IMG/VR virus record: IMGVR_UViG_3300030328_003511
Coordinates: 1 to 61,991 of that record
Length of the DNA: 61,991 nucleotides
Strand: one strand, 5' to 3'
DNA from: a virus
Taxonomy: Duplodnaviria; Caudoviricetes
In this document: in pieces, positions 1-11,359 of the stretch
How positions within the stretch are numbered: the first letter of the stretch is position 1
Layout: each line of letters opens with the position of its first letter
The notes under the pieces: model-generated
What the model was told of the DNA's origin: nothing
The model's input: only the letters and a program-made list of their open reading frames with translations
Database searches by the model: none
Made by a program: the position numbers and the translations under genes

Positions 1-100
1 AACAGCGCCCACAATTTCTATTTGATACCCTTTATATTTAAACGGAATCATATTTATTTAATCTCCAATTTGTAATTGGTTCTTAATTCGTTTGATTCAC
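1..100. repeat. Terminal direct repeat, copy 1 (circular closure)
   Basis: Identical to 61892-61991 except position 99 (a vs g). ORF 54..407 runs directly into the start of ORF 61736..61942 across the junction. Confidence 0.95.
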
Positions 101-407
101 CGCCTATTAGATATTGTCTATACAATTCCGGGTTCTCTTCCTTGAATTTAGTTATATCAAATCTAGTAGTTTTTTTATTTAATAACTGAATCGATCCAAT
201 ATAAACGCCCTTCTTACCAATTGTTTTTTGGTGTTTAAATTGAAAGTAGTTATCGTTATTTTCACAATATTCAACTAATTCTGGTTTTAATAATTTGTTA
301 ACCTTCGAATAGTTTTTTATTGTGTCTGAAAATTGACTGTAGACTAATGCCTTATAGTCAATTTTTTTGCTGTTAACATCTGACAGCATTTGTTTAAGTG
401 TTTTCAT
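54..407 (-). CDS. Hypothetical phage protein
   Basis: Strong RBS (AAGGAGG). C-terminal RFDITKFKEENPELY motif resembles YqaJ-associated C-terminal segments. Confidence 0.7.
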   Translation of the reverse strand: MKTLKQMLSDVNSKKIDYKALVYSQFSDTIKNYSKVNKLLKPELVEYCENNDNYFQFKHQKTIGKKGVYIGSIQLLNKKTTRFDITKFKEENPELYRQYLIGGESNELRTNYKLEIK

Positions 408-510
408 AATTAAACCTCCTTTGTTAGTTTGTTTTTTTATTTAACACTATCTCATTAATATAAAATTTAATAAGATACGTCAAGAAGATTCGAAAAAAAA
501 ATAAAAATAT

Positions 511-4475: not shown

Positions 4476-5021
4476 TTATTTTTTATAACCTAAAGATTTG
4501 AAACTATTCCATTGAATACCAACATATCCCAACATTTCATTCAGTTGTTTAGTTAGTTCGCCTTGTGTTGAAGCTTCCATTATTAAATCATCACAAGCTT
4601 CTTCAAGAGTTTCAAGTTTATTAAGTTTTTTGCCTTGTTCAGTTTTAGCTACCTCTCTTTCAGCAAACTTCTCACTCCACTCTCTCATTTGTTCACGACA
4701 TTTTTCAGAAGTAATTTTTTTACTTTCGCCATTTCTAAATTCATAATTTAATGAATCTCTATATGCTACATTACTCCTACTATGTTTTTTAAAAAAGCTA
4801 GTAGCTGACCTAACTGCGTTGTCATGCTCTAGTTCTGCTTTAGCTAATTGGTCTATAACTTTATCAGCACCAATTTTTTTTGACAAAGCTACATATCCTT
4901 TTTGCGCCATGTCAGAAACTAAAGACTTCAACATTAATTTTTCATCTTCAATTAATGGGTTTAGTTTTTTTCTTACTTTTTGTCTTAAATGGTCTTGCGT
5001 TCTTACTTGTACTCCACTCAT
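4476..5021 (-). CDS. Hypothetical helical or coiled-coil protein
   Basis: 181 aa ORF with RBS leader ACAGAAAGG. Confidence 0.75.
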   Translation of the reverse strand: MSGVQVRTQDHLRQKVRKKLNPLIEDEKLMLKSLVSDMAQKGYVALSKKIGADKVIDQLAKAELEHDNAVRSATSFFKKHSRSNVAYRDSLNYEFRNGESKKITSEKCREQMREWSEKFAEREVAKTEQGKKLNKLETLEEACDDLIMEASTQGELTKQLNEMLGYVGIQWNSFKSLGYKK

Positions 5022-5222
5022 AACTACCTTTCTGTTGTTAGTTTTAAAGTGTATGTTTTATGTGAGGAAAAACATACAAAAACCCAAATTTCATTTTAAG
5101 GTTTGAAATTCAAACTTACCTAATTATTTTTATATTACCCTTGACTAGCCACCACTATTACAGATGGACATTACAATCTAAAGCAGTTCTTTGGACATCT
5201 TAAAAAACAATTAAAAATTCTT

Positions 5223-5819
5223 TTAGCCAATAGTGAACCCTCCACTATTTTTACAAAAATCAGCAAACTCTTTTACATTTTCTACTGAAAAAGGATAACT
5301 TGCGTCAGAATTTCTTTTTTTATAAATTCTATCCCATGTTTTTTTGTCATCTATTGGAAAATCGCATGGTGCAAGATTTTTCTTCTTCATTTTCTTGCAT
5401 ACTCTTTTAGAAAAAAGAGATAATTCTTTTTCAACTTTGTCGTTCTGAAGCTCTAAAGTCTTTCTTCTTGCTTCATAGGTTGCTTCAAATCGTTTAGTAT
5501 GACCTTTTTTTATTAGCGCATTTAATTGATTAGCAATTTGTGTAGCATGTTCTTCATCAACTATATATTCATCATTATACGACCAATTTTTTTTATCTTT
5601 TTCATCAATAACTTTCGTATGTTCTAATACATAGAAAGCTAAAGGTCGCCACCACCAAACATTATTTCTAAAATAAGTACCAGATTGAGAAGTATATTTT
5701 TCTCTTTCTTCAAAATATTTTTCTACTTCTTCTTTTGATAAGTCGTGTAATCTATCTGGTCTTTCTGGTGCTTGCACTTTTATATTTTTTGGGTTTAGCC
5801 CTGTTAAATCAAATCCCAT
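5223..5819 (-). CDS. Conserved hypothetical phage protein
   Basis: MGFD...YFRNNVWWWRPL...F..FC..SGGF pattern; RBS leader. Confidence 0.8.
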   Translation of the reverse strand: MGFDLTGLNPKNIKVQAPERPDRLHDLSKEEVEKYFEEREKYTSQSGTYFRNNVWWWRPLAFYVLEHTKVIDEKDKKNWSYNDEYIVDEEHATQIANQLNALIKKGHTKRFEATYEARRKTLELQNDKVEKELSLFSKRVCKKMKKKNLAPCDFPIDDKKTWDRIYKKRNSDASYPFSVENVKEFADFCKNSGGFTIG

Positions 5820-5849
5820 AATTACCTTTCTGTTAGTTAATTAATAATT

Positions 5850-5883
5850 ATCCCATGAATATAGGATAAAATAGTAATGTCAA
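5850..5883 (-). promoter_or_regulatory. Promoter with operator-like palindrome
   Basis: Minus strand TTGACA followed by ATCCTAT-attc-ATGGGAT. Confidence 0.6.
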
Positions 5884-5897
5884 GTATAAAAAGTAAT

Positions 5898-5996
5898 TTA
5901 TTTGAAAATAAAATAGACCAATAAAGCTAATAAAATAAGGGTTGGAACAGGGTAAAATACTAATAATCTAATAAAAAGAGCAAAAATTGTTTCCAT
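5898..5996 (-). CDS. Small hydrophobic peptide (32 aa), paralogue of 549..644
   Basis: Manual translation METIFALFIRLLVFYPVPTLILLALLVYFIFK. Confidence 0.7.
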   Translation of the reverse strand: METIFALFIRLLVFYPVPTLILLALLVYFIFK

Positions 5997-6170: not shown

Positions 6171-6497
6171 TCAAATTTTCTTAATTTCTTTTATTACTGA
6201 ATTAGGAATAATTGTAGAATTTCCAATAGTTTCAATTCTTTTTTTATCTTCGGATAAAGAATAATCGCCAAATATTCTAGTAATACCTTTAGATTGAGAT
6301 AATAAATGTCCTTTAGTAATACAGGTTGCTAAAGTGCTATTTTTTATTTGTTCAAAACTACTCCATGAGCTATCACTAACAATATCAAACCACTCAACAG
6401 AAACCATAGGATATTTTTCTATCTCATTATAAATTTTTTTTGGGATAGAAATTTTTTTATTTTTTTTAAAATTTTTTTTTAATCTATTTTTTCTCAT
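6171..6497 (-). CDS. Conserved hypothetical phage protein
   Basis: VEWFDI.SDSSW...G...IP pattern. Confidence 0.7.
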   Translation of the reverse strand: MRKNRLKKNFKKNKKISIPKKIYNEIEKYPMVSVEWFDIVSDSSWSSFEQIKNSTLATCITKGHLLSQSKGITRIFGDYSLSEDKKRIETIGNSTIIPNSVIKEIKKI

Positions 6498-6503
6498 TCA
6501 AAT

Positions 6504-6599
6504 ATTCCCATAAAGATAGTCAGCTATTCATTTTATTTCCCATATGGATAGTCACCTGTTCATTTTATTTCCCATATGGATAGTCACCTATTCATTTTT
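6504..6599. repeat. Three tandem 32-bp repeats
   Basis: Unit tttcccatatggatagtcacctrttcatttta; CCC at 6507, 6539 and 6571. Confidence 0.9.
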
Positions 6600-6687
6600 A
6601 TTTGTTGTTAACACAGAAACAATGCCGATTGAAGTATTTAAATGGCTGTTGTGAACCTCATTAAAAACAGTCATCCAATTATCTGTT

Positions 6688-7227
6688 CTAAGTAATTTCT
6701 TTTGGCGTAACGTCAATGATGTTTTTGGCTTCTCCGATTTTACCTTCAAGTTCGGATAACCTCTTTTCAAGTTGCTCACGACTCATTCCCTCCAATCCAA
6801 CATGTGTAACTTCTTTCTTATCTACAAACATACCGGCCATTTGACCAGATCTATATTCAGCATTTACTGCTACTGAAAATTGTTTTTTGTCTTCTGCTTT
6901 CTTACTTAATGTTTCAAATCTTTTATATTTTTTTAATTTATCACCTTCATGTTTTTTTAACTCTTGGTTATACTTCATTTCCATATAACGCACTACATGA
7001 GGGTTCTTGTTAGGATCGGTTAATCTGCTCGCAATCTCTGTCGGGCCCTCTGGTTTATTAGATTGATACCCGGCTCTCTTTGCTGCTTCAACTTTACTTA
7101 TCTCTCCCCAATTACTTACATATATATCTACAAACGCTTTTTGTTTCAGCGTTAATTCAGAAGTAGATTTTAATACATTTTTTCTTTTGGGCATTCTTGA
7201 CCGGATACTATCATAATTTTTTCCCAA
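6688..7227 (-). CDS. terS: Terminase small subunit (probable start MPKRK near 7194)
   Basis: LTLKQKAFV..Y...EAAKRAGY HTH signature and C-terminal GMFVDKKEV. Confidence 0.7.
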   Translation of the reverse strand: MGKNYDSIRSRMPKRKNVLKSTSELTLKQKAFVDIYVSNWGEISKVEAAKRAGYQSNKPEGPTEIASRLTDPNKNPHVVRYMEMKYNQELKKHEGDKLKKYKRFETLSKKAEDKKQFSVAVNAEYRSGQMAGMFVDKKEVTHVGLEGMSREQLEKRLSELEGKIGEAKNIIDVTPKEIT

Positions 7228-7452
7228 TACACTTCCTTACAAACAATTTTTTATAAAAATTTAAGCACAAAATGCCTCCTCTGTATCTTATTTCTGTCAT
7301 ATTCCTAAAACTGTCTAGGAATTTCCCAGTGTTTTCCCAGTGTAAAATGCTCTAGAAGTATTGATTTAATTAGGATTTTCCTAGTTTCCTAGAAAAAAGT
7401 CTGTTTTAAAAAAAAAAAAATAAAATGTTTGTAAGAAACAGTATTGGGAAAA
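7219..7452. repeat. Long-range imperfect inverted repeat enclosing TTTCCYAG repeats
   Basis: ttttcccaatac...cttacaaaca pairs with tgtttgtaag...gtattgggaaaa; four inner TTTCC(C/T)AG copies. Confidence 0.7.
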
Positions 7453-7584
7453 TGAACCGGGAGCCGTGGGACGTGGTTCCTGTACCCACTATAATTATCG
7501 AAAAAAAATTTTTCGCTTTCTAAGAATCAACGGTCACGAACCACGAGGTTTGACAAAGGGTATTCAATAACGTAATACTGAAGT

Positions 7585-7666
7585 AAGCAAAAATTTTCAT
7601 TTTTGCCTCTTTGTTAGTTATCTAGGTCATTATCTTTTTTTAAAATTGTTTCAATAATGGCCTAGA
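7585..7666 (+). ncRNA. Candidate small RNA 1 (hairpin, anti-SD linker, hairpin)
   Basis: TTGACA(7550)-N17-TAATAC upstream; two stem-loops; linker cctctttgttagtt. Confidence 0.4.
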
Positions 7667-7704
7667 AATACTTCTTGTAATTTCTGAAAATACGTATATC
7701 TATA

Positions 7705-7781
7705 TAGATATGTTTCATATATCTAATATGAACCTTTCTGTCTTAGGCGGTGCTAAAGATAGCTCCTTAATGCCGCCTAAG
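7705..7781 (+). ncRNA. Candidate small RNA 2, same architecture
   Basis: 5' hairpin containing TTTCAT, linker aacctttctgt, 3' stem cttaggcggt/gccgcctaag; promoter weak. Confidence 0.35.
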
Positions 7782-7810
7782 TTAAAATCCCCCTCAGAGT
7801 TAAAATTTTT

Positions 7811-8284
7811 TTATCCGCCGTGACTAAAATCTTTTAAGAATTTATCTACATAGACATTATCTGCATCCATAATCTGTCTTCTTTTGTTTTCAATATTTCT
7901 TCTTAATTCTCTCCTGGAATCTAAATCACTTTCTTCCTTAAGTCTTTGAAATAACTTACTATATTCGTGCCAAAGAAAATGCCTTCGTTTAAACTTTATC
8001 AGTCCATCTCTTAAAGCTTTTAAATATCTATACCTAACGTTATCCGGTTCCCAACCTGCCCACCAACAAATTTGTTCGAAGTCTTTAGATCTCGCTATCC
8101 AGAAATGAGCATCGCATTTATTGAGACTTGATTTTCTATCCCCGGATAATAATCTAACATCTTCAAAAGCATTTAAGATTACATGCCGCCAAAGTTTTTG
8201 TTCATTACATACATGATTTTCAGCAATTATATCAGACGCAATATTAGTGCCCATAAGCTTTAACAAGTCTAGAGAGTAGATCAC
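7811..8284 (-). CDS. Conserved hypothetical protein
   Basis: EQKLWRHVILNAFED...DF..IC..AG pattern. Confidence 0.7.
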   Translation of the reverse strand: MIYSLDLLKLMGTNIASDIIAENHVCNEQKLWRHVILNAFEDVRLLSGDRKSSLNKCDAHFWIARSKDFEQICWWAGWEPDNVRYRYLKALRDGLIKFKRRHFLWHEYSKLFQRLKEESDLDSRRELRRNIENKRRQIMDADNVYVDKFLKDFSHGG

Positions 8285-10802: not shown

Positions 10803-11091
10803 CTTTAACCTCCATATCCGGGGTTAACTTAAGAACATCTAATTTTAATCTCATGTCTTTTTTATCTTCGACTGTTTCGTAGATATTTAAAAGTTCTTTA
10901 AGTTTATTATTTTCTTCTGTTAACTTTTTTAGATTTTTTTGAAGTTCATCTAAATTGTTAAACAGACTTTTCATCGCTTCTTCTAATCTACCTAGCGAAT
11001 CTAAATTACCTTCGGGTTGTTGTCCTAATGGTAAGTCTAAGCTAACTGTAGGTAATATTTTCTCTTTTAGTTTATTTAATGTCAGTGCCAT
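10789..11091 (-). CDS. Coiled-coil hypothetical protein
   Basis: Heptad leucine pattern; RBS GGAGG. Confidence 0.6.
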   Translation of the reverse strand: MALTLNKLKEKILPTVSLDLPLGQQPEGNLDSLGRLEEAMKSLFNNLDELQKNLKKLTEENNKLKELLNIYETVEDKKDMRLKLDVLKLTPDMEVKDGHK

Positions 11092-11359
11092 TTATGTCCT
11101 CCTTTGTTGGTTCATTGTTTCGGCCTTCGATTTCGTCTTCTACTAAGATTGTTGCAATAGTTTTAGAAATTGGATAATGTTTTCTTCCTATCCCATCTAT
11201 AAAATGTATATTTGCAATACCATCTATAAGCATATCCAAATGTAATGAATCTTCAATAGGGCTACCAAACACATCGCTTGTTGGAATAGCCGCTAATTGT
11301 TTATCCAAATCAGTTATGATATTCTCTAGTATAAGACTTTTACTTTTTAATTGCTTCAT
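11072..11359 (-). CDS. Hypothetical protein
   Basis: First gene after a divergent promoter. Confidence 0.65.
   Translation of the reverse strand: MKQLKSKSLILENIITDLDKQLAAIPTSDVFGSPIEDSLHLDMLIDGIANIHFIDGIGRKHYPISKTIATILVEDEIEGRNNEPTKEDINGTDIK

Follow-up and report, generated by a model that had tools for sequence, protein, structure and literature searches.

Phages have long offered examples of genes that are controlled by pairing between two RNAs. The c4 RNA of phages P1 and P7 (family C4 in Rfam) and the sar RNA of P22 are phage antisense RNAs that mask a ribosome-binding site. Pyrimidine-rich pairing motifs are also found in bacteria, as in RsaE and RNAIII, the C-rich (UCCC-motif) small RNAs (sRNAs) of Firmicutes. 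Two other arrangements are of interest here: the lambda cI message transcribed from PRM, which is leaderless, and the type I toxin-antitoxin systems, in which a small open reading frame (ORF) comes with an overlapping antisense RNA over its ribosome-binding site. The lambda RNA PreS/LPR1 is described, in the accessible part of a preprint, as a trans-acting phage sRNA that acts on host genes (dnaN) and enhances translation (bioRxiv 10.1101/2024.10.31.621285). Here we analyse two small units that lie side by side in the complete 61,991-base IMG/VR virus record IMGVR_UViG_3300030328_003511, the whole of which we call the window. Parts of the window share ~77-80% DNA identity with Pelagibacter phage HTVC023P (MN698239), of which the window is, by its sequence, a complete relative. 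We favour the reading, which we hold with belief and doubt about evenly balanced, that these are two adjacent plus-strand small transcription units: a non-coding sRNA directed against the leaders of phage genes, and a leaderless micro-gene with a conserved hairpin.

Results

Unit 1 is conserved in structure and seed

An initial annotation of this locus had described a plus-strand TTGACA-N17-TAATAC followed, in an ORF-free gap, by two units of parallel design, each with a 5' hairpin, a pyrimidine linker and a longer 3' stem, and had proposed that they are anti-Shine-Dalgarno (anti-SD) sRNAs. The promoter sequence and every element of both units are indeed there (Table 1). The gap is not ORF-free: a plus-strand ORF of 37 amino acids (aa) spans unit 2. 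Using the orfA protein, whose gene borders the gap, we gathered 81 matches at 79 distinct IMG/VR loci, and both units are present in about 50 related loci.

In a MAFFT alignment of 43 unit 1 copies (A1), eight of the nine positions of the seed TTGTTAGTT are invariant and the ninth is at least 90% conserved, and RNAalifold recovers the 3' stem, each of its 9 pairs showing compensatory changes. When 48 copies were re-aligned with a covariance model, R1 (alignment A3, in which the fit to the model favours structure), 89.5% of the cells were paired, against 65.4% in shuffles and 28-46% in controls with slid partners. Compensatory double changes affect 19 of the 20 pairs, and the covariation score of 0.67 (vs 0.24) was reached by 0 of 500 shuffles. 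In Rfam 15 the whole window gave 0 matches at gathering thresholds, and the best scores for 7200-7900 were 11-17 bits (E 0.7-6), far below the cut-offs.

Both strands of the window fold better than shuffles (z -3.8 to -5.8), so that folding alone cannot pick the strand. The balance of G.T and A.C cells is a test of strand that is independent of the model fit. A3 holds 755 Watson-Crick, 74 G.T and 9 A.C cells, and the paired fraction falls from the 89.5% of a plus-strand RNA to 82.5% when the alignment is read as minus. In counts from a strand-symmetric hairpin finder, G.T exceeds A.C by 51:6 in the 3' stem and by 15:8 in the 5' hairpin; in the latter it is a doubtful outermost pair that supplies the A.C cells. 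The control chosen for these counts, nine minus-strand terminators upstream of the gp27-family gene, holds 1 G.T and 2 A.C, too few to inform.

Promoter and terminator signals lie on the same strand. P1-like sequences (TTGACA, TTGACG or TTTACA with a 16-18 nucleotide (nt) spacer) are present in 43 of 48 copies, their -10 box ending 5-10 nt short of the 5' hairpin, with a mean best score of 9.8 versus 7.8 in shuffles. In HTVC023P this promoter reads TTTACA-N17-TAATAA. The promoters in front of ORFs 407, 1778, 3249 and 5819 belong to the same type as P1 and the unit 2 promoter, P2. Sigma-70-type promoters are the relevant kind here because HTVC027P, a phage of the HTVC023P type, is stated in the accessible part of its description to lack an RNA polymerase of its own (PMC12753301). 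Past the 3' stem, 29 of 48 copies have a T-tract of at least 5 T in 8 bases, and 23 have one of at least 6; in most relatives the stem-loop is probably an intrinsic terminator. The copies that have no T-tract are the window, loci where minus-strand cargo abuts the stem and a few others; in the window the stem is present, with the tail AAATACTTC. As first annotated, neither this stem nor stem-loop 2 of unit 2 is followed by a T-tract in the window. Given the plus-strand wobble pairs, the conserved plus-strand sigma-70-type promoters and the T-tracts after the unit 1 stem in most relatives, the assignment of the structures to plus-strand transcripts is supported.

The minus strand of unit 1 also contains a micro-ORF, and it behaves very differently from the RNA elements. 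Its length ranges from 1 to 58 codons, its sequences are unrelated between subgroups, and its ATG is present in 46 of 48 copies and absent from 2. To judge from these alignments, what is conserved in unit 1 is the complement of SD-spacer-AUG-AAA, not a peptide. Since conservation resides in structure and linker and not in minus-strand peptides, the refuting condition named in the initial annotation is decided in favour of RNA.

Candidate target leaders

Read in the minus direction, unit 1 has the layout of a translation-initiation region, AACTAACAAAGAGG-N5-ATGAAA. The complementarity between the linkers and the leaders of ORFs 407, 5021, 5819 and 3249, reported in the initial annotation, is real by sequence matches. 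The complement of linker 1 occurs as AACTAACAAAGGAG at 416-429 (minus strand) before ORF 54..407 and as AACTAACAGAAAGG at 5825-5838 (minus strand) before ORF 5223..5819; that of linker 2 occurs as ACAGAAAGGT before ORFs 5021 and 5819 and as CAGAAAGG before ORF 3249. When linker 1 was scanned for duplexes against ~24,800 40-nt windows from both strands (genome mean -6.1 kcal/mol, standard deviation 2.7), the leader of ORF 407 was its best non-self partner (-18.1 kcal/mol) and the leader of ORF 5819 came third (-17.3). The motif ACTAACA has 12 sites in the window, three of them 18-21 nt before the start codons of ORFs 54..407, 4476..5021 and 5223..5819, three genes that stand behind strong sigma-70-type promoters and mostly have a terminator of their own upstream.

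The leaders are conserved in the relatives too. Most of 31 distinct leaders from the ORF 5223..5819 family retain a ACTAACAA-like box immediately ahead of the SD, and such a box is present in all the gp27-family leaders seen; in our reading, made from position and leader only, gp27 of HTVC023P is the homologue of ORF 54..407. Ranking the 86 annotated leaders of HTVC023P against the phage's own RNA 1 seed places gp27 first (-19.9 kcal/mol, with a 15-nt perfect match), followed by gp61, gp23 and gp26, over a mean of -9.9 (standard deviation 3.6). For cognate pairs of seed and gp27-family leader in the 14 genomes that contain both loci, the longest perfect match measures 10.43, versus 9.46 +/- 0.26 for permuted pairings (p=0.0002), and the duplex energy gives p=0.035. 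A search for the seed complement in the divergent loci L075 and L079-81, which are record fragments, gave non-unit matches no commoner than a reversed-pattern control.

Neither the candidate target genes nor the 37-aa ORF of unit 2 could be given a function from Pfam or PHROGs. The description of the targets as an early regulon, which came with the first proposal, is an assumption; in HTVC023P the candidate target genes lie between terS and terL.

Some features of these leaders are worth recording in their own right. The strongly promoted minus-strand genes (ORFs 407, 1778, 3249 and 5819; e.g. at 5850-5900) have in common TTGAC(A/G)-N17 and a -10 box, in most of them preceded by a terminator hairpin. 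In three of these four genes (3249 being the one without it) an (A)TGGGA(T)A box stands just past the -10, ahead of the ACTAACA leader, and the TGGGATA box is also kept in the leaders of many relatives. Model R1 has a weak second match at 374-479 on the plus strand (27.1 bits, E 0.025), opposite the leader of ORF 54..407. This leader region therefore resembles the reverse complement of unit 1, which fits an origin of unit 1 from a copy of a leader.

Unit 2 combines a probably leaderless frame with a conserved hairpin

A promoter filter for P2 was passed by 22 of the 24 class-1 copies of unit 2, with a distance from -10 box to ATG of 6 nt in 19 of them, 5 in one and 7 in two (the window and L066); inspection by eye shows TATAAG in the corresponding position of the remaining two copies. 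This geometry is found in two upstream contexts that are unrelated to each other, and by eye it is the same in the divergent loci L048, L075 and L079-81, where the ORFs that follow are unrelated and 18-32 aa long. No purine-rich box was found at a working distance from the unit 2 ATG. Since the ATG is fixed at the start site predicted from the -10 box, we read the transcript as a putative leaderless mRNA. The frame is open in all 24 class-1 copies, running from an invariant ATG to the same TGA in the last codons of orfA (MFHI..GGDCSLPSK.KF.YPP), and it has 37 codons in the window and 28-29 in most relatives. In our reading, all the indels in its alignment (A4) preserve the frame: -3, a -2/-1 pair, +3 (L067), and +6 and +18 (window). 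Entropy by codon position is 0.22/0.28/0.45 overall.

Stem-loop 2 was examined in a MAFFT-only alignment of 41 relatives, the window copy left out. Paired cells amount to 98.0%, versus 77.6% in shuffles and 40-54% with slid partners, and 7 of the 12 pairs show compensatory changes. There are 83 G.U cells, and two pairs alternate between U.G and U-A and between G.U and A-U, which is standard only on the plus strand; the strand-symmetric finder counts 62 G.T to 7 A.C. The loop CGATTGCTCC (CGAUUGCUCC in RNA) is nearly fixed in the relatives and has diverged to GCTAAAGATAGCTCCTTAA in the window. By these comparative measures the stem-loop 2 RNA hairpin is selected in its own right.

The ATG lying 6-7 nt past the -10 box and the conserved open frame lead us to conclude that unit 2 is probably not a simple sRNA and is likely a leaderless micro-gene. 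Translation from its 5'-terminal AUG is likely, at about an even chance, and the act of translation may matter more than the sequence of the peptide. The pair of anti-SD sRNAs first proposed thus survives in part: in unit 1 the anti-leader design (anti-SD plus anti-AUG) is conserved, with modest co-variation between seed and target, and unit 2 probably falls outside a plain sRNA.

The window copy of unit 2 is unlike those of all relatives, with a longer and diverged loop in stem-loop 2 and an 18-base duplication 3' of the stem, both of which keep the frame. Class-2 loci (e.g. L020:3445-3589:-) have an extra plus-strand hairpin upstream of stem-loop 2, with an SD-like loop, GGAGAAAUCA. This loop is nearly complementary to that of stem-loop 2 (GAUUGCUCC), and the hairpin is followed by a start-stop or a 5-codon ORF. 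It may be an internal target mimic or make a loop-loop contact.

A cargo hot spot between the units

Measured from the orfA stop codon to where the tblastn match to terS begins, the junction spans 380 to 2270 nt, depending on the locus. The gap is free of cargo (no ORF of at least 45 aa) in the window and more than 20 other loci. In 10 loci a minus-strand gene of 75-82 aa occupies the slot between the units, and in 14 loci the gap holds a plus-strand gene of 51-72 aa (65-72 aa in 13, 51 aa in one). In these plus-strand loci the cargo ATG comes directly after the unit 1 T-tract, with no SD, and the A3 rows end ...TTTTATT-ATGAGAAA. The slot protein of L009 (L009:2746-2973:+) has the N-terminus M..NLFETL.DVGSGL and matches phrog_4276, of unknown function. 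The plus-strand and minus-strand slot genes (e.g. that of L009, and on the opposite strand those of L012 and L020) are homologues by eye only; finding one gene at a single site in either orientation points to inversion or recurrent exchange of the cassette. A 132-aa plus-strand gene lies upstream of unit 1 in HTVC023P and 3 more loci. As these comparisons read, the junction is a cargo hot spot, a variable slot framed by the two units.

Model R1 finds one strong unit 1 copy per genome, and the units are always at this junction. An exact scan of IMG/VR with a 15-mer of the seed returned 118 stretches, mostly unrelated coding sequence, with the unit itself only in HTVC023P-type loci and one new variant (L169). 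R1 found no unit 1 in the first 20 kb of HTVC027P, and gp33 of that phage is unrelated to ORF 5223..5819.

Genomic surroundings

The minus strand carries every gene from ~11,360 down to 54. Both units sit in a 583-base gap with orfA on one side and a terS-like gene on the other, and all their neighbouring genes lie on the opposite strand. The orfA gene is convergent with unit 2, shares 13 bases with the unit 2 ORF and encodes a product without a match to any family in Pfam or PHROGs. The same junction in HTVC023P separates the replication block (primase, helicase, polymerase and so on to gp19, the orfA homologue) from gp21 (terS), gp22-gp28 and terL.

Table 1. Position and content of the features discussed, in window coordinates
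Feature	Position	Strand	Details
Promoter P1 (unit 1)	7550..7578	+	-35 TTGACA 7550-7555, 17-nt spacer, -10 TAATAC 7573-7578
RNA 1, predicted non-coding sRNA of ~85 nt	7585..7670	+	both ends predicted
Unit 1 5' hairpin	7587-7606	+	GCAAAAAT/ATTTTTGC, loop TTTC; TTTCAT spans loop and 3' arm
Unit 1 linker/seed, single-stranded	7607-7620	+	CTCTTTGTTAGTTA
RNA 1 seed portion	in the seed	+	UUGUUAGUU
Unit 1 3' stem-loop	7621-7666	+	TCTAGGTCATTAT/ATAATGGCCTAGA
Promoter P2 (unit 2)	7675..7702	+	-35 TTGTAA 7675-7680, 16-nt spacer, -10 TATCTA 7697-7702, 7 nt to ATG at 7710
Unit 2 ORF / putative RNA 2	7710..7823	+	37 codons, MFHISNMN...KFFYPP*; stop TGA 7821-7823 within last orfA codons
Unit 2 small hairpin	7716-7730	+	CATAT/ATATG (within 7703-7730)
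Unit 2 linker	7731-7741	+	AACCTTTCTGT
Stem-loop 2	7742-7781	+	CTTAGGCGG/CCGCCTAAG
18-nt duplication in unit 2 of the window	7781-7788 and 7799-7806	+	GTTAAAAT at both positions; follows stem
Candidate target 1, leader of ORF 54..407	408..440	-	aacaaACTAACAAAGGAGGtttaattATGAAA; TTGACG-N17-TATATT promoter upstream
Candidate target 2, leader of ORF 5223..5819	5820..5850	-	ttaACTAACAGAAAGGtaattATG; TTGACA-N17-TATTCA promoter upstream
Candidate target 3, leader of ORF 4476..5021	5022..5052	-	aaaACTAACAACAGAAAGGtagttATG
orfA	7811-8284	-	157 aa, function unknown; last gene of replication-side block; HTVC023P gp19 homologue
terS-like gene	6688-7227	-	Terminase_2 24.8 bits (below the 26.1 cut-off); phrog_51

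Other repeated sequences share the gap. A 25-base motif, TGTTTGTAAGRAA..GTATTGGGAA, has its sole two genomic copies at 7221-7245 (minus) and 7426-7450 (plus), where they form a divergent pair (0.01 expected). One copy is just upstream of the terS-like gene and the other aims at the units, with a GC-rich hairpin coming next at ~7455-7480; both copies are conserved in HTVC023P. They are possibly specially regulated divergent promoters or operator sites. Between them, within 7322-7392 on the plus strand, lie 4 of the 6 genomic copies of the octamer TTTCCYAG, arranged as two tandem pairs (TTTCCCAGTGT twice and TTTCCTAG twice), and HTVC023P has five or six such boxes in the same place. These boxes look like iterons for a DNA-binding protein, or like an origin or packaging site beside terS. 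Further away, at 6505-6603, a 32-base unit is repeated 3.1 times (91% matches) directly upstream of ORF 6171..6497.

Discussion

The features gathered above can be put together into a working model. Host RNA polymerase would transcribe unit 1 from P1 into a non-coding sRNA of ~85 nt, RNA 1, with a 5' hairpin whose loop contains UUUCAU and a 3' stem-loop, between which the seed, (CCUC)UUUGUUAGUU, is left unpaired and hardly varies. RNA 1 would be the antisense image of a AACUAACAA-SD-spacer-AUGAAA initiation region, the form carried in the window by ORFs 54..407, 5223..5819 and 4476..5021 and in HTVC023P by gp27, gp23 and gp26, and it would pair with these leaders across the SD and lower their translation. 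We infer that such pairing in trans is the most likely mechanism. We take the 3' end of the SAR11 16S rRNA to be …CCUCCUUUCU. The transcript of unit 2 would begin at the AUG and serve as a leaderless mRNA for a tiny protein while carrying a 12-bp stem-loop. A more specific version of this model is tentative, and we would sooner bet against it than for it: a dedicated trans-acting sRNA, directed at the AACUAACAA box, SD and start codon together, would switch off a set of strongly promoted genes post-transcriptionally. Its partner would be a leaderless micro-gene; translation of that gene would traverse a second anti-SD hairpin, located where the replication operon has its convergent end, and may gate this hairpin. 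If true, a lytic marine phage wholly dependent on host RNA polymerase would possess a temporal switch made of RNA.

A number of observations weigh against the pairing of an anti-leader sRNA with a micro-gene. Complementarity to SD-like leaders is partly generic: the linker 14-mer, with up to 3 mismatches, has 20 matches genome-wide where 13.6 +/- 4.0 are expected, and 4 of 100 shuffles reach 20. The top non-self matches of linker 2 are not leaders, those of ORFs 5021 and 5819 ranking 4th-5th, and gp61 comes second in the HTVC023P ranking despite having no box. Co-variation of seed and leader is weak, amounting to some three concordant changes (the length of an A-run, a CAAG variant and an AACCAA variant). 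Its statistics ignore phylogeny, with L072 and L073 being near-duplicates, and the same signal could arise if paralogous leader-like sequences underwent gene conversion. For the leaders of the g5819 family the permutation p is only 0.033, and a pairing of loop 2 with these leaders had to be rejected, as the 8-nt GGAGCAAU complementarity is common and cognate pairs do no better than permuted ones (p=0.19). In the window, RNA 1 has no T-tract and may read through into unit 2; in the 14 loci where unit 1 is directly upstream of plus-strand cargo, it could have a leader or attenuator role. As for the micro-gene, its first ten codons have no third-position bias (0.43/0.43/0.40), the loop codons have no synonymous change (entropy zero), and the changes in the stem are compensatory and non-synonymous. 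Across the GC-rich stem, two frames out of three stay open, and class-2 loci keep stem-loop 2 without an ATG-started frame. The flat codon pattern, the open frames in the stem and these ORF-less hairpins mean that the peptide may be incidental. Finally, the single RNA run found, X1 (8% of sampled words), yielded three contigs at 5205-5222, 8042-8192 and ~11058-11265 and left 7338-8004 uncovered, which is uninformative either way.

The plus-strand RNAs might act only in cis, as convergent antisense transcripts against read-through from the orfA operon. Transcriptional interference, or processing of double-stranded RNA at the 3' end of the orfA message, would then insulate the terS-side block, and the likeness to leaders would be a by-product of origin. 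Such a role would account for a single strong copy of unit 1 per genome, always at one junction, and would suit the lack of a minus-strand terminator 3' of orfA, the overlap of the unit 2 ORF with the end of orfA and the position of stem-loop 2 in class-2 loci, where it abuts the orfA stop codon. However, a pure roadblock has no need of a nearly invariant 9-nt unpaired seed, and it leaves unexplained both a loop kept complementary to AUGAAA and the co-variation of the seed with the leader of a gene 7 kb away. We consider this explanation unlikely. It is also conceivable that the units provide the control elements of a gene cassette gained and lost at this hot spot, unit 1 being the promoter and 5' leader, with an attenuator hairpin, of plus-strand cargo and unit 2 its trailing end; in the window the cargo would have been lost and leader and trailer left adjacent. 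The variable distance between orfA and terS, the 14 loci with a gene right after the unit 1 T-tract, the 10 loci with a gene on the other strand between the units (its likeness to the plus-strand gene being judged by eye) and the 132-aa gene upstream of unit 1 in HTVC023P and three other loci all speak for a cassette. Yet both units are kept, with compensatory changes, in at least 20 loci without a gap ORF of at least 45 aa, the window included, and they are also kept when the cargo is inverted or upstream. Their conservation is therefore independent of a downstream gene, and we find the cassette explanation distinctly improbable.

The two other alternatives dispense with plus-strand RNA altogether. 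The palindromes could be signals in single-stranded or double-stranded DNA, such as a replication origin, a packaging site or protein-binding sites. Iterons and a divergent repeat do share the gap, beside a terS-like gene, and G.T mispairs are tolerated in single-stranded DNA hairpins too; but a positionally conserved sigma-70-type promoter is aimed at each unit, T-tracts follow the unit 1 stem on the same strand, and stems that covary freely around fixed loops and seed are the usual pattern of RNA, all of which makes DNA signals very improbable. The initial annotation had offered as its own alternative that each unit is a minus-strand hairpin, ribosome-binding site and micro-ORF for a small peptide (MKIFAYF... 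and MKHIYID...). Micro-ORFs of 26 and 18 aa do exist in the window, an SD-like box and ATG occur in 46 of the 48 unit 1 copies, and the minus strand folds well. Nevertheless the unit 1 ORF, as variable in length as described, is reduced to ATG-TAA in 5 copies and lacks the ATG in 2. The minus-strand ATG of unit 2 is missing in L010, L056 and L069, the 74 and 83 wobble cells become A.C mismatches, and neither stem has a T-tract on this strand. Contradicted by the comparative data, the minus-strand units are scarcely credible, and we reject them.

The favoured model, of an anti-leader sRNA next to a leaderless micro-gene, would matter for several reasons. Regulatory RNAs encoded by phages have, to our knowledge, been described in a small number of model phages. 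A literature search (pelagiphage and sRNA) found none described in pelagiphages, and a term search in the accessible part of the HTVC023P literature gave no mention of small, non-coding or antisense RNA. The RNA family at this locus is well defined and backed by covariation. It occurs in the pelagiphage group that is most abundant, its candidate targets are named, and a phage in culture, HTVC023P on HTCC1062, represents it. It may help to explain the timing of expression in a phage without its own RNA polymerase, and it adds a possible leaderless micro-protein missed by gene callers and a hot spot of cargo exchange between the units. According to the accessible part of the HTVC027P description, directional RNA libraries for that phage exist under PRJNA1253180, and its group is described as lytic (PMC12753301).

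Comparison with known systems

How, then, does this locus relate to the systems described so far? With type I toxin-antitoxin pairs the resemblance ends early: the minus-strand ORF, at 1-58 codons and unrelated between subgroups, is conserved neither in length nor in sequence, so the defining toxin is missing, and we rejected this candidate. Unit 2 recalls lambda cI in the placement of its -10 box for a start at the A of the AUG and in having no SD. It differs in that its start is predicted and its ORF of 18-37 codons is not conserved in sequence between subgroups and runs through a stem-loop into a converging gene. Unit 1 shares with RsaE and RNAIII unpaired pyrimidine-rich motifs (CCUC, CCUUUCU, GCUCC) that are like the 16S 3' end and would pair with SDs from loops and linkers; the host lineage is another one, and the analogy is of design only, without homology.

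The closest parallels are with phage RNAs. Like c4 and sar, RNA 1 would be a small phage-encoded RNA with unpaired segments complementary to the SD region of phage genes, probably derived from a copy of a target leader. Neither C4 nor another Rfam family matches the window in sequence or structure. In temperate phages c4 and sar serve immunity and antirepressor control, and sar is purely cis-antisense; here the phage group is described as lytic, and there are several candidate targets, 2-7 kb away. With PreS, as far as the accessible part of its description goes, the predicted RNA would share base pairing by a phage-encoded sRNA and action in trans during lytic growth; here, however, the candidates for targeting are leaders of phage genes, and repression would be expected; the relation in sequence was compared via Rfam only. 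The likeness of these units to the RNAs that mask ribosome-binding sites in P1/P7 and P22, and to PreS, is one of design and not of family.

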